A stretch of 6,002 nt of DNA. Origin: a virus. The DNA is taken from the IMG/VR virus record IMGVR_UViG_3300020950_000017. The stretch is one strand, 5' to 3'. Position 1 is the first letter of the stretch. The number at the start of each line of letters is the position of its first letter. The notes beneath the pieces were generated by a model. The model had not been told where the DNA came from, ran no database searches, and saw only the letters and a list, made by a program, of their open reading frames with translations. Below, one piece after another: positions 1-6,002 of the stretch. The translations under genes were made by a program, and so were the position numbers.

Positions 1-113
1 AAGGCGTTAGAATCAACGCTGACGAAAGTTGAGCCGCTTAAAAGATCGTCAATTCTCACCACATTATTAGGCTGAATAAGAACAGGTGGTCGGTTTGCTT
101 CCGGTCTATACAT
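1..113 (-). CDS. Partial duplicate (first 37 codons) of the G-position protein, created by the terminal overlap. Not an independent gene.
   Basis: ATG at 113..111 equals the ATG at 5974..5972. The sequence is identical to 5862..5974. Confidence 0.9.
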   Translation of the reverse strand, partial: MYRPEANRPPVLIQPNNVVRIDDLLSGSTFVSVDSNA

Positions 114-141
114 CTATCTAGTTCCTGCGAAAATTGACGCT
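1..141. repeat. Terminal direct repeat, copy 1. It is identical to 5862..6002 and marks a circular genome linearised with an assembly overlap (unit length 5861 nt).
   Basis: Read by eye: 1..141 (aaggcgttagaatcaacgctgacg ... gaaaattgacgct) recurs base for base at 5862..6002, offset 5861. The repeat carries the F-stop / G-position-start junction (cat|cta at 111-116 = 5972-5977). Confidence 0.95.
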
Positions 142-1382
142 TGCGGTTTCGGAATGTATCGCTTGGCGAGGATGTTAATCATCAGTTGGGCTCGCCAGTG
201 TGCGAGTTGCGTTGTCTGGAAAGCCTCATCGTATTCATCGGAATCTACATAACGGAAATCTGATTTACTCTTTCCTGTGTTTTTTGAAAAGAAAGGAAAT
301 CCATCCAAATCATCGTATTGCTTATCTACATAAGTGGGATGTTCTCTGAGCCAATCGCCGTATGGCCGCATTCCAATATCATTACTGCCGTTGTGCCTAA
401 AAAAATCATCCACGGATATCGTCTGAGGTGGTTCTGCTTCAAGAATATTATAATCACCAGCCCACTCCTTATAACTCGGATTAACTTTGCCATCCAGATA
501 ATGCTTCTCATCGTCGAAAATAGTCGGGTAGCGAACTAACGCCATCACCCAGAGAGTTCCGTGCTCGTTGAAGTATTTATGAGGCATACGCATACCGCCG
601 AGTGCCATAGATTTTCCGGCATATTGTCCTAAATTGTCATTGCCTGTGCCATCCACATCCGAGCCACTCATCCAAAAGGAAGTTTTCCAGACCAACTGCG
701 GCCGTTGGTCGGCGTCTATATTCACACCGGACTTCCATCCTTGTTTAAGGACATCAGTATAGCGGCGAGCATACCACTCGCGTTGTCTTTCAGTTTTAAG
801 GTGTGCCTTTTGCTTTTCTAAATCAAGTAATGACAGAGTATTTGAATTAACATCTACATCGGTATCCGAACTCACCACATTACCATCAATTGTTGCCGAC
901 CACATACGAGGTAGCCATCCACACTTATAGCCGTGATCGCTTGCGTCTGAGTTAGCACTAGGTAGATAGTCATCAGCGACAATATCACCATCGGCGGTAG
1001 GTGCTCTAAAGTATCGATTCCAAATCTGGTTATAGCCTGCGACAACCCAGAGTGGCAATGTGCCGAGCTCGTGGCAAGCAAGATAAGGACGCAAGTCAGA
1101 GTTTGTTACTCCTTCAAAAGTCTTGGATTCATCATTGCCATCTTTAATGAAATCTACAAAATCATCGCCGTAAATGTGTCTGTGAGGAACATAAAAGGCG
1201 AATAGATCCACTTTGCTATCAATAATCAATTCACGGCGGAGAGGAGCAAGTCGCCAGATACCAGCCAAATCAATATTCATCGAATCTCCGGGCAAAACTG
1301 GAATACGGGAAAGTGTCTTGAGCCGTCCCATTGCTCCAAGAGTGAAGCATAAATGATTAAGATTAAATGCGTTGCGTTCCAT
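114..1382 (-). CDS. F: Major capsid protein, phiX174 F family, 422 aa
   Basis: Long ORF. The N-terminal block HLCFTLGAMGRLKTLSRIPVLPGDSMNIDLAGIWRLAPLRRELIIDSKVDLFAFYVPHRHIYG matches the recalled phiX174 F block HLGFLAGQIGRLITISTTPVIAGDSFEMDAVGALRLSPLRRGLAIDSTVDIFTFYVPHRHVYG. Also DADQRPQLVW..SGSDVDGTG..LGQYAG matches DADNRPLLVM..SGYDVDGTD..LGQFSG, and EHGTLWVMALVRYP matches EHGTMFTLALVRFP. The size is close to phiX F (about 426 aa) and well short of gokushovirus VP1 (above 500 aa). The ATG at 1382 overlaps the upstream stop (TAATG). Confidence 0.95.
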   Translation of the reverse strand: MERNAFNLNHLCFTLGAMGRLKTLSRIPVLPGDSMNIDLAGIWRLAPLRRELIIDSKVDLFAFYVPHRHIYGDDFVDFIKDGNDESKTFEGVTNSDLRPYLACHELGTLPLWVVAGYNQIWNRYFRAPTADGDIVADDYLPSANSDASDHGYKCGWLPRMWSATIDGNVVSSDTDVDVNSNTLSLLDLEKQKAHLKTERQREWYARRYTDVLKQGWKSGVNIDADQRPQLVWKTSFWMSGSDVDGTGNDNLGQYAGKSMALGGMRMPHKYFNEHGTLWVMALVRYPTIFDDEKHYLDGKVNPSYKEWAGDYNILEAEPPQTISVDDFFRHNGSNDIGMRPYGDWLREHPTYVDKQYDDLDGFPFFSKNTGKSKSDFRYVDSDEYDEAFQTTQLAHWRAQLMINILAKRYIPKPQASIFAGTR

Positions 1383-1903
1383 TAGCGTATTCTTTTCATT
1401 TCCGTATGCGTTTTTTCAAAGTAGCGTTTATCATCATTCCCAACATTAGATATATGTATCCATTCATTATATTCGTTTATAGCTACATCAAAATGAAATA
1501 AATTAGTATGTAGTTCCTCATGCTTCAATTGACAAGCGTATATCTGCTCAGCAACCCAGTTAATAGATCGATTTGGAACTATAAAATCGACAGCATTACC
1601 ATATGTATGTTGGCTCGTCAGCGTACCACCAACAAAAGCATTAAGAGTAGTACAACGATAGCCAGAAGTTATCACTACAGGCAAACCTAAATAATCACGC
1701 AATGGGTCTAGTGTGTATGTAGTCAATCGCACTAAACTATTAAAAACCTCAATCGGCTGGGTATCCGATTCGTCCGGAAAATTCTTTATGCCTTTCTGGT
1801 GTGCGGTGCGGGACCGGAACAATTCGTCAAGGCTGAAGTAGTCAGATAACCAAGTGTCATTGCTACCAAAATCCTTAGGCGATAATGGCTCTGTTTTAAT
1901 CAA
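1382..1903 (-). CDS. Zinc D-Ala-D-Ala / L-Ala-D-Glu type peptidase, M15 family (endolysin-like cell-wall hydrolase), 173 aa, probable TTG start
   Basis: M15 signature ITSGYRCTTLNAFVGGTLTSQHTYGNAVDF (SGYR..N..GG...SxH-x6-D) plus the distal WIHIS histidine. Predicted Zn ligands are H99, D106 and H150. No N-terminal signal peptide or TM segment. There is no in-frame ATG until residue 168. The TTG at 1903..1901 lies 9 nt downstream of GGAGG (1917..1913) and overlaps the J stop (TTTTGA). Its stop overlaps the F start (TAATG at 1384..1380). Confidence 0.85.
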   Translation of the reverse strand: MIKTEPLSPKDFGSNDTWLSDYFSLDELFRSRTAHQKGIKNFPDESDTQPIEVFNSLVRLTTYTLDPLRDYLGLPVVITSGYRCTTLNAFVGGTLTSQHTYGNAVDFIVPNRSINWVAEQIYACQLKHEELHTNLFHFDVAINEYNEWIHISNVGNDDKRYFEKTHTEMKRIR

Positions 1904-1983
1904 AACCGAATCCCTCCTACTATATTAGTTCTCTTGCCACCGCCTCGGCGAGAGGCTCGCTTGCTACTAGGCTTCCGGCTCAT
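1900..1983 (-). CDS. J: J-like small basic DNA-binding / packaging peptide, 27 aa (MSRKPSSKRASRRGGGKRTNIVGGIRF). Not in the supplied ORF track.
   Basis: Hand translation from the ATG at 1983..1981 to the TGA at 1902..1900. It has 9 basic and 0 acidic residues in 27. The C-terminal NIVGGIRF resembles the recalled phiX174 J C-terminus (..LWYVGGQQF) and the G4 J end (..LWYVGGTQY). GAGGT (1997..1993) lies 9 nt upstream of the ATG. It sits between D and the capsid module, as in phiX174. Confidence 0.8.
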   Translation of the reverse strand: MSRKPSSKRASRRGGGKRTNIVGGIRF

Positions 1984-2012
1984 TTTTTTGCGACCTCTAG
2001 AAAAGCGACGCT

Positions 2013-2483
2013 TCACTTGGCTTTCTCCACCGCGTGCTCGATCATGTACTTACCGTCTTTATTGAATAACTTTTGATACTCCTTATACTCACCAGAACTT
2101 GCTAACAGAACAAGTCCGAACAAACGGGAGGGGCTAAACTTAGAAGGCGAATCATCACGAACAGCGACATCTACATCCAAATACACGCCCTGCATATAGC
2201 TACACGCCGCCATATAATTTACTGGAGCAACAAACATTGCTATTATTGCTGCCAAATACTCAGCACAGAGATCCATCTGGGGAAGGCCTTGGGCAGACAT
2301 ACTGCCACCAATGAGCGATTGAAGCGTTCTACAAACTGAATGTTTATCGGTCGACATCCATACCTTATTACCAGTCAAAAGCTTAAAGTCGTCAGGGTTA
2401 ATTCCCAATCCTTGGATACCGTGAGCCTTCGCAGTCTGAGCTACTACACTCATCGCACTTAAACAAATTGCGTTATCTTTCAT
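2013..2483 (-). CDS. D: External scaffolding protein, phiX174 D family, 156 aa (the open frame extends to a TTG at 2567, but the ATG at 2483 is preferred)
   Basis: INPDDFKLLTGNKVWMSTDK matches recalled phiX D LTEDDFDFLTSNKVWIATDR. YLAAIIAMFVAPVNYMAACSYMQG matches FIAAVIAYYVHPVNIQTACLIMEG. From the ATG at 2483 the DDF motif falls at residues 30-32, against 31-33 in phiX D, and the length is 156 aa against 152. GGAG (2495..2492) lies 8 nt upstream. The ATG overlaps the upstream stop as ATGA (2483..2480). Confidence 0.9.
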   Translation of the reverse strand: MKDNAICLSAMSVVAQTAKAHGIQGLGINPDDFKLLTGNKVWMSTDKHSVCRTLQSLIGGSMSAQGLPQMDLCAEYLAAIIAMFVAPVNYMAACSYMQGVYLDVDVAVRDDSPSKFSPSRLFGLVLLASSGEYKEYQKLFNKDGKYMIEHAVEKAK

Positions 2484-2761
2484 TGTGATTTCTCCAATAG
2501 TTTTAATCCTTTGTTGCTTCGGACTTGATTGGCAAACATTCTTATTATGTGTTCCGATTCCAAGCAAGCATACTCTAGATTCAATTCGGCTTGACGCACC
2601 GCGTCAGTCGGATGATCTAGCTCAGACTTAAAAAAATCAGAGCGAGCCGAGTGTAAAACATCCAACGCGCTCTGAATAGCGACAGCGACCTTGCCAAGCT
2701 CATCTAAAGAGCGAGGACAAAGCAAATCATCTGCCGAAGGGTTGAGGTTAATATGATTCAT
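2480..2761 (-). CDS. Hypothetical acidic 93-aa protein at the position of phiX174 gene C (DNA maturation). The assignment is by synteny only.
   Basis: The ORF runs from the ATG at 2761 to the TGA at 2482..2480 and is coupled to D by ATGA. It lies between Rep and D and is similar in size to phiX C (86 aa). I see no sequence similarity to the recalled phiX C, and there is no clear SD upstream. Confidence 0.6.
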   Translation of the reverse strand: MNHINLNPSADDLLCPRSLDELGKVAVAIQSALDVLHSARSDFFKSELDHPTDAVRQAELNLEYACLESEHIIRMFANQVRSNKGLKLLEKSQ

Positions 2762-2767
2762 AGCTCT

Positions 2768-2795
2768 ATATTACCAAATCAGCAAAAGCTGTCAA
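2768..2795 (-). promoter_or_regulatory. Candidate sigma70-type promoter: -35 TTGACA (2795..2790), 16-nt spacer, extended TGn, -10 TAATAT (2773..2768)
   Basis: The minus strand reads TTGACAgcttttgctgatttggTAATATagagctATG. The -35 is a perfect match, TG sits one base upstream of the -10, and the -10 matches 4 of 6 positions including the key A2 and T6. The Rep stop TGA (2794..2792) lies inside the -35. The predicted transcription start falls at or next to the A of the ATG at 2761. Confidence 0.45.
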
Positions 2796-2877
2796 GTGCC
2801 GTGATAGATATTAGCTGAACCGCCAAAAACAGGGACACTGAGACTATTAGGATTAAAATTAAATCTTGATTCCACAT
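2779..2877 (-). CDS. Candidate 32-aa single-pass hydrophobic peptide (MWNQDLILILIVSVSLFLAVQLISITALDSFC), overprinted on the Rep 3' end at the position of phiX174 gene K. Not in the ORF track.
   Basis: Hand translation of the third minus-strand frame: ATG at 2877..2875, TGA at 2781..2779. GAGGTG (2889..2884) lies 6 nt upstream of the ATG. Residues 6-28 form an uninterrupted hydrophobic stretch. The ORF starts 24 nt after the B-like stop and ends 18 nt before the C-position ATG. Confidence 0.35.
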   Translation of the reverse strand: MWNQDLILILIVSVSLFLAVQLISITALDSFC

Positions 2878-4240
2878 CTGCTACACCTCTACCAATTACC
2901 TTAAAACCTGCCGTGAGTTTTGAGCTCATCGGGCGTATCGATTCCAAAGAACTCAGCTGGTTGCGGAGTGGTCTCATCTTTGTTATACATCTGGAAGGCG
3001 GTAGCAATGTCGCCTTCGGCTTTATAGCCATCAATAGTAAATGTATTCGTCTCGGCTTCATCCGACTCAACATCACCTTCACCATCAGCCTCTTTATTAA
3101 TCTTGTTGGTATCCAGCGATCGAACATCTGTATCGGGATTCTGTTTAATCTCATCAGCTGTAGTATCTGGGTTTGCGTTAGTTTGTTGAGAATCGCTTTC
3201 AGCTGATTCAATCCGTGATTCCGAGTTTGTCTTAATCTCCATAACTTCTTACCTCCAGATAAATCTAAGTCTTGATCTTTGACTAAATATTTAACTACAT
3301 AATAACAGATTGCTCTTATATCGCTAGTCTTAATTGCGGAGTAGTTGCCAAGCTCATCCCTAGCGACCGGAAAACGCCAGCCCAGCTTACTGTATGGGTC
3401 ATCAGCACTTGTTCTCACAGCAATTGGCGAGCTAAATCCATAGTTCCAGTATTCTTTAAGTTCCTGTATCTCACGCAACGCAGGTGCGGGCGGATGTGTT
3501 GAAGTATAGCTAAAACGAGAATTAGGATCACGCCAGCCAGCTGGCAAAGCCTTAAGCCACATTAAACAATGTATATGAAGGCGACCAGTCTCACTGCCTC
3601 TCTCTACACAGGCGAAGTAAGTAAGCACCTCAGGTTGATTCTGTGCTTCTCTAACCGAGCCATATACTTCAATCTGAACGGCTCTTTTCACCTTTCTTAT
3701 ATGATTACGCCAACATCTGCTACCCTTCTCAAACACTTTGTCTAGGTGCTCTGGAGCGACCGTGAGAGTATTGAAAATGGGATACCATCCCTGATGTCTC
3801 TTTTCAAATGCCTCACAAACAAGCCTAAACATAGCTTGGCCGTTACTTGCCTTCCTAGCTTGCTTGGCTACTAAGTGCCAAAATATGGCGTCTACGCCTT
3901 TCTTCCGGCTGCGGTGAGGAGCGTAGAAGCCAAATAGTGCCTCACAGTGGGACTGGTGATCGGGATACTCTTTGAATAAATCTGTTAATTCTGCTGACAT
4001 TATACGGCGGTGGTCCATAAAATCAGTAATATCAAGTCGGCAAAACTGAAACGAGTTATAGTAGTCATATAGACGCTGGAGATGGTTGAATATTGAAGGA
4101 TCGGTGCCAGAGGCTTCGGCGTGACAATAGAGGACACGCAAACGGTTTTCAAGCCGTCTGAATAGCTGATAGGTCCGGTCTTGGAAGTATGACCGTGCGA
4201 AAGGGCCTTCTTTACTTTTTGAGTTGCTTGCGGATTTCAT
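2792..4240 (-). CDS. A: Rolling-circle replication initiator (HUH endonuclease), phiX174 gene A family, 482 aa from the ATG at 4240 (the open frame extends to a TTG at 4351, 519 aa)
   Basis: Motif 1 is GWYPIFNTLTV (phiX GWFIVFDTLTL). Motif 2 (HUH) is GRLHIHCLMW, with HIH = CATATACAT at 3577..3569 (phiX GRLHFHAVHF). Motif 3 is YYVVKYLVKDQDLDL, with paired tyrosines 4 residues apart (phiX FYVAKYVNKKSDMDL). AAGGAG (4250..4245) lies 4 nt upstream of the ATG at 4240. FARSYF, 14 residues in, resembles the phiX A N-terminal MVRSYY. Confidence 0.9.
   Translation of the reverse strand: MKSASNSKSKEGPFARSYFQDRTYQLFRRLENRLRVLYCHAEASGTDPSIFNHLQRLYDYYNSFQFCRLDITDFMDHRRIMSAELTDLFKEYPDHQSHCEALFGFYAPHRSRKKGVDAIFWHLVAKQARKASNGQAMFRLVCEAFEKRHQGWYPIFNTLTVAPEHLDKVFEKGSRCWRNHIRKVKRAVQIEVYGSVREAQNQPEVLTYFACVERGSETGRLHIHCLMWLKALPAGWRDPNSRFSYTSTHPPAPALREIQELKEYWNYGFSSPIAVRTSADDPYSKLGWRFPVARDELGNYSAIKTSDIRAICYYVVKYLVKDQDLDLSGGKKLWRLRQTRNHGLNQLKAILNKLTQTQILQLMRLNRIPIQMFDRWIPTRLIKRLMVKVMLSRMKPRRIHLLLMAIKPKATLLPPSRCITKMRPLRNQLSSLESIRPMSSKLTAGFKVIGRGVADVESRFNFNPNSLSVPVFGGSANIYHGT
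2901..3242 (-). CDS. B: Internal scaffolding protein, phiX174 B-like, 113 aa, encoded entirely inside Rep in another frame
   Basis: GGAGGT lies 8 nt upstream of the ATG at 3242. The protein is acidic, polar and low in complexity. Its C-terminus FQMYNKDETTPQPAEFFGIDTPDELKTHGRF matches the recalled phiX B C-terminus IYARFDKNDWRIQPAEFYRFHDAEVNTFGYF, which is the capsid-binding aromatic tail. The B-within-A nesting is the same as in phiX174. Confidence 0.8.
   Translation of the reverse strand: MEIKTNSESRIESAESDSQQTNANPDTTADEIKQNPDTDVRSLDTNKINKEADGEGDVESDEAETNTFTIDGYKAEGDIATAFQMYNKDETTPQPAEFFGIDTPDELKTHGRF
4010..4039 (-). other. Viral-strand origin of rolling-circle replication (30-nt Rep recognition and nick site) inside the Rep gene. 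The predicted nick is between G4033 and A4032 on the minus strand.
   Basis: The minus strand reads CGACTTGATATTACTGATTTTATGGACCAC. The recalled phiX174 ori is CAACTTGATATTAATAACACTATAGACCAC. By hand count, 22 of 30 positions match with no gaps, including the ACTTG|ATATTA nick core and the terminal GACCAC. It lies in the same reading-frame context (RLDITDFMDH against QLDINNTIDH). Confidence 0.8.
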
Positions 4241-4355
4241 CAATCTCCTTGCTATTTTGAATGTAGCGACACAAACCAACAGCAAAACGAGCTGAGGCTT
4301 GTATAAGAGGGATGAAGGTGACGAGCTTGGCAATGTATTTAACAGTATCAAACAT
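4212..4355 (-). CDS. Candidate 47-aa small protein (MFDTVKYIAKLVTFIPLIQASARFAVGLCRYIQNSKEIDEIRKQLKK) filling the H-to-Rep gap and overlapping the Rep start by 29 nt. Not in the ORF track.
   Basis: Hand translation: ATG at 4355..4353, TAA at 4214..4212. AAGGAG lies 7 nt upstream, directly after the H stop (TAA AGGAGTATATTG ATG). It has a hydrophobic core (residues 8-29, interrupted by K10 and R23) and a charged helical tail. It is in a different frame from Rep. Confidence 0.45.
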   Translation of the reverse strand: MFDTVKYIAKLVTFIPLIQASARFAVGLCRYIQNSKEIDEIRKQLKK

Positions 4356-4367
4356 CAATATACTCCT

Positions 4368-5309
4368 TTATTTATTGAATGGAAGTTTGGGTTGTTGAGG
4401 AGTAATCTTAGGAGATTCTAAGTCAAACTTAGGACGAGGCTTACGCTTCTTAGTGGCTCGCATTAAAGACTTAGCACTAGAAACAAAACGAGAACCATAG
4501 CCAGCAATTCCGATAGGAAGCAAAGCAGTTAGCGTCTTAAATGTATCTTGCCAAGGAATTGATGAGCCATTATCAAAGATTGAAAAAGCGGGCGTAAGAT
4601 AGCCAAGTTCAGTCTTTTTGACATCCGCACGAGACTTAGCCTCAGCCCAAAGCGATTCAGCGTATTTAATATTACCATTATGAGCTTCTGTAATAGCACG
4701 AGCCATCAACAGTTGAGATTCACGAGTTAGTTTTTTGAGCTCAGGTGCGAGTTTTTGTGCGATAGCATTAGCCTCTTGGCGAGCTTTTTCAGATAAGCCG
4801 TAATTAAGTGCTATTTTACTATCTACTAAATCACGACGAACAGAGACTTGAGTATCCCAGTCTTGTGTGTCTTTACCTTCCAAATGAGCCGTTCCTCCAA
4901 CAGTCGCATTGCGTCCTACTGATACGCCGGCCGCAGTGACTTGAGCTCTTGCGTTAATTCTGGCAATTTTTTCTGATGTCCGTAATTTTTCTCTTTCCAG
5001 TTGTGCTCCAAGACCACGAGCACCAACACCGCTACCCGATGAGCCAAGTCGTTCCCACGGATTCGTGCCGGGATATAATTTATTAAATGTATTAAGAAGT
5101 TTATCATCTGCCGTTGGAATACCAAGAATGCGTCCTCCTTGCGATACAAGCTGATTACTAATTAAATCTGAGCCAGCCTGTTGAGTTGACGCACCGAGCG
5201 ACTTGCCAAACGCCGATCCGCCAAGTGCTCCGAGTGCTCCGGAAAGCTTGCCAAAGAAACCGCCACCAGCGATCTTGGAAGCACCTGCTGAAAAAGGACC
5301 TACAGGCAT
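4368..5309 (-). CDS. H: DNA pilot (minor spike / ejection tube) protein, phiX174 H-like, 313 aa
   Basis: It follows the G-position gene as in phiX174 and is similar in size (313 aa against 328). The N-terminus is glycine-rich (AGASKIAGGGFFGKLSGALGALGGSAFGKSLG), like phiX H. YPGTNPWERLGSSGSG matches recalled phiX H FPELNAWERAGADASS. The central region is long, Q/A/E/K-rich and helical. The start overlaps the upstream stop (TAATG at 5311..5307). Confidence 0.85.
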   Translation of the reverse strand: MPVGPFSAGASKIAGGGFFGKLSGALGALGGSAFGKSLGASTQQAGSDLISNQLVSQGGRILGIPTADDKLLNTFNKLYPGTNPWERLGSSGSGVGARGLGAQLEREKLRTSEKIARINARAQVTAAGVSVGRNATVGGTAHLEGKDTQDWDTQVSVRRDLVDSKIALNYGLSEKARQEANAIAQKLAPELKKLTRESQLLMARAITEAHNGNIKYAESLWAEAKSRADVKKTELGYLTPAFSIFDNGSSIPWQDTFKTLTALLPIGIAGYGSRFVSSAKSLMRATKKRKPRPKFDLESPKITPQQPKLPFNK

Positions 5310-5974
5310 TATCTGGTAGGAACAAAAGTGGGGAAGTCTTTGTTATAGGCGTAGAGTGAGAGGCTACATCGTAAGTTAGATATATTGGTAGTGCCATTCG
5401 TGGAAACATAAGCGAATAAAATAACCACATTTTCGGAGGAAGCTACTGAATTATATATAATCGGAGTGGGTGGCAACGATAAAGTGTGTATGCGTGAGTT
5501 CTCATAGTTAATGCCAGGCAACAAGTGGTAATCAGTTATCCGGTTGATCTCCTCGTTCCAATTGCTGACACCAGCTTTCAAGTTCGCCGATGAACGCTGA
5601 CCCAAACCAAAACCAAGTGTATGAAAACTGGCTCCATCATCCTGCCTATAATGAAGAGTAGCGGACGCCATCAAGTGCCTTGGATTAAAACCTTTACGCT
5701 CTAAGGCTGGAAGAGAAAGCCAAGTCCCAAAGCTAACATTCTTACCGGCAGACAACGAACGAGCCGGCTCCATTGTATAATTGATTGATCTAAATAGATC
5801 GGTGTTAGTGGGCGGGTTATTAAACTCAATATCGTTAATCAACAAAGGGCTAAAAGTCTCAAAGGCGTTAGAATCAACGCTGACGAAAGTTGAGCCGCTT
5901 AAAAGATCGTCAATTCTCACCACATTATTAGGCTGAATAAGAACAGGTGGTCGGTTTGCTTCCGGTCTATACAT
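5309..5974 (-). CDS. 221-aa structural protein at the major-spike (phiX174 G) position. The spike role is inferred from synteny and composition only.
   Basis: A full ORF that wraps the circular junction. Its ATG (5974) directly follows the F stop (TAGATG), with AGGA 9 nt upstream, and its stop overlaps the H start. Composition is rich in S, T, N and V and looks beta-rich. I recognise no similarity to the recalled phiX or G4 G proteins (175-177 aa). Confidence 0.6.
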   Translation of the reverse strand: MYRPEANRPPVLIQPNNVVRIDDLLSGSTFVSVDSNAFETFSPLLINDIEFNNPPTNTDLFRSINYTMEPARSLSAGKNVSFGTWLSLPALERKGFNPRHLMASATLHYRQDDGASFHTLGFGLGQRSSANLKAGVSNWNEEINRITDYHLLPGINYENSRIHTLSLPPTPIIYNSVASSENVVILFAYVSTNGTTNISNLRCSLSLYAYNKDFPTFVPTR

Positions 5975-6002
5975 CTATCTAGTTCCTGCGAAAATTGACG
6001 CT
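5862..6002. repeat. Terminal direct repeat, copy 2 (identical to 1..141). It contains the last 8 sense codons plus stop of F (5975..6002) and the first 37 codons of the G-position gene.
   Basis: Base-for-base identity with 1..141 on visual comparison. Confidence 0.95.

Follow-up and report, generated by a model that had tools for sequence, protein, structure and literature searches.

Genes D and J in a compact microvirus genome, probably outside the Bullavirinae, with a putative M15 endolysin gene between J and F

The 6,002-nt virus contig IMGVR_UViG_3300020950_000017 from IMG/VR (the whole stretch of DNA analysed here, called the window in the following) raises the question whether two small overlapping genes on its minus strand, together covering positions 1900 to 2483, encode the external scaffolding protein D and the DNA-packaging peptide J of phiX174-type microviruses, and in which lineage of these viruses they reside. 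A sequence-only reading of the window had proposed strongly diverged homologues of both, accompanied by homologues of F, H, B and Rep in the gene order of phiX174, in a deep-branching relative of the two-scaffold microviruses. We consider it very probable that the window virus belongs to the phiX-type external-scaffold lineage (Family 1/Suborder I), to its pequenovirus-like part and outside the Bullavirinae, and that the interval in question consists of genes D and J. A clearly more tentative conclusion concerns the adjoining gene for a peptidase of the M15 type and its possible role in lysis.

The external scaffolding protein and the J-type peptide

Gene D (156 aa; 2013..2483, minus strand) starts with an ATG overlapping the stop codon of the upstream gene (ATGA), and a GGAGA motif is located 8 nt upstream. 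Its product matched the Pfam family PF02925 (gpD) with 57.6 bits at a gathering cut-off of 25 (E-value of 1.8e-15), the PHROGs family phrog_1386 with an E-value of 4e-30, and the gpD chains of phiX174 and alpha3 in the PDB (1al0 and 1tx9) with an E-value of 7e-15. An AlphaFold2 (AF2) model calculated from an alignment of 76 sequences was all-helical with eight helices at a predicted local distance difference test (pLDDT) value of 84.5. Using this model for the structural comparison with phiX174 D that the sequence-only reading had recommended, the seven best PDB matches were all found to be gpD chains (template modelling (TM) scores of 0.74-0.79), and the eighth match had an E-value of 1.9. 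The best of them, chain 4 of 1al0 (1al0_4), gave TM-scores of 0.74/0.79 and a root mean square deviation of 3.2 A. From phiX genetics, G61 of phiX D is the kink glycine of helix 3, which enables several conformations of the protein. In the window protein G60 is aligned with this residue, and the position is invariant in an alignment of 7 sequences. By sequence, profile and predicted fold, the 156-aa protein is the external scaffold D, as had been proposed. A word-seeded search of 5.8 billion proteins with D returned the query itself only, and an exhaustive HMMER search yielded 609 clusters (50% identity) at E-values of 1e-3 or below, 163 of them at 1e-10 or below. The top match of the exhaustive search, P0002, was rejected as spurious: it is a eukaryote-type repeat protein of 5,520 aa, and its score was built from 24 repeated partial matches to residues 56-87 of D.

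Directly downstream, gene J (1900..2016, minus strand) encodes a basic DNA-packaging peptide of 38 aa ending in NIVGGIRF. It contains 16 lysine or arginine residues (K/R) and no acidic residue (D/E), its GTG start overlaps the stop codon of D (GTGA), and GGAGA is found 7 nt upstream. Several results weigh against calling this open reading frame (ORF) a J gene. Pfam and PHROGs contained no matching family at an E-value of 1 or below, a comparison by BLAST with the J peptides of phiX, G4 and alpha3 gave E-values of 0.6-1.6, and a home-made J profile hidden Markov model (HMM) scored 2.1 bits after a bias of 21.3. Thus, of the profile homology proposed for D and J, that for D was significant, while that for J was lost once composition was corrected. 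As the profile HMM was not significant after this correction, it was replaced by a test of signature and position. GGxxx-stop is the ending of every known J peptide and of the ORFs at the J position in the relatives, and gene J provides the sole ending of this kind among the 228 stop-to-stop segments of the window genome. Across 19 related genomes the combination of GGxxx-stop with a K/R-rich tail was observed 17 times versus approximately 1.2 times expected, with 16 of the 17 cases being small basic coding-strand ORFs of the J type. Between D and F, such small basic ORFs ending in GGxxx-stop were found in 15 of 16 relatives examined. Furthermore, the peptide was 41% identical (E-value of 1e-5) to the J-position ORF of L028, the only significant J match; L028 belongs to the nearest relative found for the window virus (L026-L028, metagenomic, approximately 5.57 kb; ENA ERZ27241712, ERZ27241711 and ERZ23493460). 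It is hence highly improbable that the 38-aa ORF is a chance frame or an unrelated basic peptide in the gap between D and F: the silence of the databases, the vanished profile score and the poor pairwise matches would fit such a view, but the signature, the position, the L028 match, the Shine-Dalgarno site, the start overlapping the D stop and the GGIRF ending known from gokushovirus peptides all argue for a J-type peptide, which we regard as confirmed.

The same C-terminal motif recurs in the VP8/ORF8 peptides of gokushoviruses. J of phiX ends in WYVGGQQF, the peptide of phiMH2K in ...RGGIRL (L024, 3516-3632) and ORF8 of Chp2 in ...RGGIRF (L025, 3010-3144), and both gokushovirus tails are closer to VGGIRF of the window than VGGQQF of phiX is. 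This shared GGxxx-stop tail of gokushovirus and phiX-type peptides suggests one pan-microvirus J/VP8 peptide family, and the assumption of the sequence-only reading that J is restricted to the Bullavirinae does not hold.

Placement among the D-bearing microviruses

The window contains a complete circular genome of 5,861 nt. This conclusion is based on an exact direct repeat of 141 nt at both ends (1..141 = 5862..6002, 100% identity, without strand), which was found by repeat search and reflects the assembly redundancy of the circle, and on an identical contig from the independent Logan assembly, which circularises at 5,861 nt, too. All genes are carried by the minus strand. Their order on the coding strand is orf47, A with B overprinted, the C-position gene, D, J, Peptidase_M15_3, F, the G-position gene and H. 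Between neighbouring genes there is either no gap or an overlap of 1-4 nt (ATGA at C/D, GTGA at D/J, TTGA at J/M15), and approximately 99% of the genome is coding. The remaining, approximately 42 non-coding nt consist of 30 nt that separate A from the C-position gene (2762-2791) and 12 nt that separate H from orf47 (4356-4367). phiX174 and G4, in contrast, possess J-F, F-G and H-A intergenic regions, none of which is present in the window genome. When the entire window was compared with 50,697 phage records by megablast, no match was obtained; therefore, the virus is not a described species.

The major capsid protein F (422 aa; 114..1382, minus strand; Pfam Phage_F, E-value of 1.6e-59) was used for neighbour-joining trees with 500 bootstraps and gokushovirus VP1 as root. 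The F protein of L011 was left out of later trees, as it formed a misplaced long branch. All D-bearing genomes formed one clade with 100% support versus the gokushovirus outgroups. Within this clade, the window and L028 were a sister pair with 95% support, and the Bullavirinae formed a clade with L018 and a Vibrio phage (94-99% support), which contained the window in 0 of 500 replicates. The position of the pair formed by the window and L028 among the pequenovirus-like lineages reached bootstrap values of 12-38%, which weighs against a firm assignment within this part of the tree. Of the two hallmarks of Suborder I, external scaffold and separate spike, the former is present in the window, and a candidate for the latter follows F (see below). 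The F capsid protein clusters with Family 1 and not with gokushovirus VP1.

The best protein matches in the phage collection were the pequenoviruses of the Eel River Basin (46% identity for F and 36% for D); together with similar metagenomic genomes, the values were 43-48% for F and up to 36% for D. These viruses (KP087943, KP087947, KP087951, KP087957), the uncultivated virus genomes (UViGs) of IMG/VR and the Ciona microvirus MH572352 have circular genomes of 5-6 kb with the order A(B)-C-D-J-F-G-H like the window. They carry unannotated J-type peptides ending in GGxxx-stop and a G-position family homologous to that of the window (profile E-value of 4e-9). They differ from it by the lack of M15 and by a D-F interval with small ORFs, many of them hydrophobic. 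L028 shares the gene order of the window with identities of 56% for F, 53% for D and 42% for A. In contrast to the window, its genes D, J and F follow each other without interruption, the stop codon of J overlapping the start of F, M15 is missing, a 39-aa transmembrane ORF follows H, and the C-position proteins of the two genomes cannot be aligned. With the Bullavirinae (phiX174, G4, alpha3) the window has in common the gene order, the D fold (TM 0.74-0.79 to 1al0) with its glycine kink, the motifs QPAEF...F of B, VGGxxF of J and HUH/YxxKY of A, and the overlapping stop/start junctions. Differences are the identities in the range of 27-37% (F 35-37%, D 29-33%, A 27-28%), the lack of an overprinted E gene and of any detectable similarity of the G- and C-position proteins, and M15 between J and F. 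Homologues of F, H, B and Rep in phiX-like gene order, strong divergence from phiX174, G4 and alpha3, and G- and C-position proteins without similarity to the phiX proteins had all been predicted correctly from the sequence. That the virus represents a divergent member of the Bullavirinae proper, a fourth genus of the phiX/G4/alpha3 kind, is the least probable of all alternatives considered, as the same gene order and the homologues of D, J, B, F, H and A would fit, but the identities of F and D fall far below those among the three genera (F 66-72%, D 77-82%), the Bullavirinae clade never held the window, E as well as G or C homology are lacking, and pequenoviruses provide the best matches.

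External scaffolds outside the Bullavirinae were known before. An external scaffolding protein is annotated in the GenBank records of the pequenoviruses from the Eel River Basin (Bryson et al., 2015), microviruses of the Ciona gut carry D (Creasy et al., PMC6116155), and Vibrio phage PG19 has gpD (PMC9431446). Suborder I/Family 1 was defined as Bullavirinae plus Klebsiella prophages plus pequenovirus metagenome-assembled genomes, with external scaffold and spike as hallmarks (Kirchberger et al., 2022; PMC9239249). With these records and the 609 D-like clusters, the restriction of D to the Bullavirinae assumed by the sequence-only reading was refuted. Of its proposal of a deep-branching two-scaffold relative, the divergence and the position outside the Bullavirinae stood, but not a uniquely deep root: the window genome is one more long branch in a known, populous and bushy D-bearing radiation. 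Since many such lineages are known, all with both scaffolds, the window alone does not show how the dual scaffold arose, the use for which it had been recommended. A search for prophages and hosts with D and F patterns in 185,579 representative GTDB genomes found nothing, and a metagenome scan retrieved one partial contig only.

A peptidase gene between J and F and the question of lysis

The gene between J and F (1382..1903, minus strand) encodes a Peptidase_M15_3 protein of 173 aa, a putative endolysin. It directly adjoins the D-J interval and had been missed by the sequence-only reading, as had the absence of E and the coding density of 99%. The protein matched Pfam PF08291 with 68.1 bits at a cut-off of 23.2 (E-value of 9e-19) and the endolysin family phrog_894 with an E-value of 1.7e-28. 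Its zinc motif (H-x6-D...H) is intact, with SQHTYGNAVD aligned with SRHMYGHAAD of 1lbu and the downstream histidine located in EWIHIS. Its TTG start codon shares bases with the J stop (TTGA) and is preceded by GGAGG at a distance of 9 nt, and the stop codon overlaps the start of F. An E-like frame overprinted in D was not found: the longest alternative open stretch in D comprises 43 codons, versus a 113-codon open frame (E) in D of phiX174, and no ORF beginning with a start codon exceeds 22 aa.

No homologue of M15 and no such zinc motif was detected in the other D-bearing genomes examined (45 loci, approximately 40 distinct genomes), and the search of IMG/VR for M15 relatives found none. The M15 region has the lowest GC content in the genome (37.6% versus approximately 44%). 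Since approximately 40 D-bearing genomes are without M15 and the J stop of L028 directly overlaps the F start, M15 looks like a horizontally acquired, lineage-specific insertion. The best-scoring homologue in the phage collection was the peptidase of bajarodmic virus 28, a gokushovirus-type microvirus (PQ006262; 37% identity, E-value of 1e-19). For microviruses, an endolysin role of M15_3 peptidases has been proposed (PMC3394797), and a peptidase cluster reportedly connects Suborder II with Families 3-6, 8 and 10, with Family 1 not listed (PMC9239249). The best homologue of the window M15 is in line with this reported exchange of peptidases among microvirus families. The M15_3 genes of Gokushovirinae, Alpavirinae and Amoyvirinae belong to the same Pfam family and have the same presumed endolysin role as the window M15. 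These carriers, however, are without D and G and show a gokushovirus-type gene order, whereas the window genome has D.

An endolysin would need access to the cell wall in order to act in lysis, and at this point the data speak less in favour of M15: no signal peptide and no membrane segment were predicted for the protein, and no holin was identified in the genome. Speculative membrane partners are a conserved and a non-conserved small ORF. The former, orf47 (47 aa; 4212..4355, minus strand), is a small gene between H and A which overlaps the start of A, with AGGAG 7 nt upstream. The Logan assembly lists it as a gene, L028 has a 52-aa ORF at the corresponding site with 49% identity to it (E-value of 3e-13), and its N-terminal half is amphipathic or hydrophobic. 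The latter, a candidate hydrophobic ORF of 32 aa (MWNQDLILILIVSVSLFLAVQLISITALDSFC; 2779..2877, minus strand), is overprinted on the 3' end of A. It starts 24 nt after the B stop in a K-like position, with GAGG 8 nt upstream, and holds the most hydrophobic 19-mer among all coding-strand ORFs. As no counterpart was found in L028, this ORF is not claimed as a gene and may be due to chance. A second small hydrophobic ORF of 38 aa is located at 3531..3415.

In the pequenovirus-like relatives, the D-F interval was found to hold one to three small ORFs, many of which contain a transmembrane-like segment. Examples are a family of 47-48 aa (L009/L010/L015), another of 46-49 aa (L011/L012/L013/L016) and ORFs of 59 aa (L001/L014), and the D-F ORF of L001 (KP087957) is annotated as hypothetical protein in the public record. 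The 39-aa transmembrane ORF after H in L028 is located at 1568-1687. All these small ORFs, that of L028 included, are candidates for non-overprinted lysis peptides. D of the window has no E-like frame, and the relatives carry small hydrophobic ORFs either between D and F or downstream of H. We infer that the D-bearing lineage uses the D-F interval as its slot for accessory and lysis genes.

Our tentative interpretation, to which we assign clearly less than even chances, is that the window virus represents the first recognised external-scaffold (Suborder I) lineage whose lysis function is supplied by an acquired M15 endolysin, replacing a small membrane peptide such as E. As the sister genome is without M15, the acquisition would then be a recent event restricted to this lineage. 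The opposing view, according to which the M15 gene stems from a chimeric assembly or is a passenger that plays no part in lysis, while a small membrane peptide, so far unrecognised, lyses the cells in the manner of phiX174, appears unlikely, yet of the alternatives discussed here it survives best. It agrees with the finding that neither the nearest relative nor any of the other D-bearing genomes examined carries M15, with the low GC content of the gene, with the missing export signal of its product, with the hydrophobic small ORFs of the window (32 aa at 2877..2779 and 38 aa at 3531..3415), and with the small membrane-type ORFs of the relatives. A chimera is, however, hard to reconcile with the identical contigs of the Joint Genome Institute (JGI) and Logan, both of which circularise at 5,861 nt, and the overlaps of the M15 start and stop with J and F are unlike the product of a chimeric join. 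Against a mere passenger argue the intact catalytic zinc motif and the fact that 522 useless nt are unlikely to be kept in a 5.9-kb genome that is 99% coding, and M15_3 genes were recurrently acquired in other microvirus families, where they were read as endolysins (PMC3394797; PMC9239249). We regard the arrangement with M15 in place of E as a modestly novel lysis variant.

Remaining genes, proposed assembly and implications

The replication initiator A (482 aa; 2792..4240, minus strand) is a rolling-circle protein of the HUH type, which matched phrog_713 with an E-value of 5e-62 and the Pfam families REP_ORF2-G2P and Phage_GPA. Its ATG is located at 4240 in a frame open from 4351. The HUH motif GRLHIHCLMW resembles GRLHFHAVHF of phiX, and the tyrosine pair YYVVKYLVK resembles FYVAKYVNK. 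Overprinted in A lies gene B for the internal scaffolding protein (113 aa; 2901..3242, minus strand), with a weak match to Pfam Phage_B (E-value of 0.029). Its C-terminus ...QPAEFFGIDTPDELKTHGRF resembles ...QPAEFYRFHDAEVNTFGYF of phiX in a common QPAEF...G-x-F tail, and over the full length it is 33% identical to the 113-aa B protein of L028 (E-value of 2.6e-14). The DNA pilot protein H (313 aa; 4368..5309, minus strand) with its glycine-rich N-terminus matched phrog_1471 (6e-4), phiX H with 32% identity over 102 aa (E-value of 1.5e-6) and L028 H with 35% identity (E-value of 9e-41).

The gene for the G-position protein (221 aa; 5309..5974, minus strand) starts inside the terminal repeat and, once the circle is closed, follows directly on the stop codon of F. 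A profile built from the pequenovirus proteins at the G position matched the protein with an E-value of 4e-9 and an hhalign probability of 92.5%, and its counterpart in L028 shares 28% identity with it (E-value of 1e-14). The profile of G-position proteins retrieved five proteins only, and a word-seeded search of 5.8 billion proteins returned the protein itself only. An AF2 model based on an alignment of 5 sequences was all-beta at low confidence (pLDDT 48.8), and its Foldseek matches were generic jelly-roll proteins, with phiX G at rank 22. From its position in the genome and the pequenovirus profile, a G-like spike is plausible; against it speak the low confidence of the model and the fact that neither sequence nor profile comparison connects the protein with phiX G. 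The C-position protein (93 aa; 2480..2761, minus strand) is a positional analogue only of phiX C, as no significant match was found in Pfam, PHROGs, NCBIfam, the Bullavirinae or the relatives. In the relatives, the C-position ORFs are small and unrelated. The A-D interval of L002 (KP087943) contains a 95-aa ORF with a lipoprotein-like signal (...ILTFLSGC...; 1558-1845).

Neither a viral-strand nor a complementary-strand origin was located in the window, the viral-strand search being performed with the phiX origin sequence CAACTTGATATTAATAAC, which was not found at up to 3 mismatches. An Rfam scan of the window gave no match, and a scan for promoters and terminators found sites no more numerous than in shuffled sequence. 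The best sigma-70-like site (2768-2795, minus strand) combines TTGACA, a spacing of 16 nt and TG-TAATAT with 10 of 12 matches, and it ends 6 nt before the ATG of the C-position gene.

The virus is likely assembled by the mechanism of phiX174. We are aware of the fact that all steps are extrapolated from phiX174, whose proteins are 27-37% identical, which weighs against a detailed transfer. The internal scaffold B would prime F pentamers, and these would associate with the pilot protein H and with G-position protein pentamers. D would coat the shell externally, with the G60 kink allowing several conformations, and would hold the pentamers together as procapsid. A is predicted to nick the origin via its HUH motif and the YxxKY tyrosine pair, feeding single-stranded DNA into the procapsid. 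J may enter with the DNA, neutralise its charge and displace B, with the hydrophobic C-terminal tail VGGIRF as putative anchor to F, and D would be shed at maturation. Late in infection, the M15_3 zinc peptidase, with its weak TTG start and translationally coupled to J and F, would most likely degrade peptidoglycan.

The window adds a complete and very compact member to a poorly sampled sister radiation of phiX174. Together with L028 it offers a comparison point for conserved residues, namely G60, E75 and N89 of D, the QPAEF...F tail of B and the GGxxx tail of J. If the interpretation of M15 as the lysis enzyme is true, the E-type 'protein antibiotic' lysis would be an invention specific for the Bullavirinae, and the D-F interval would be a swappable lysis and accessory slot across the entire D-bearing lineage. 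A phiX-type virus with an enzymatic endolysin and without E would then provide a natural test case for swaps of the lysis strategy in single-stranded DNA phages, and also for an endolysin that would act without a signal and without a recognisable holin.

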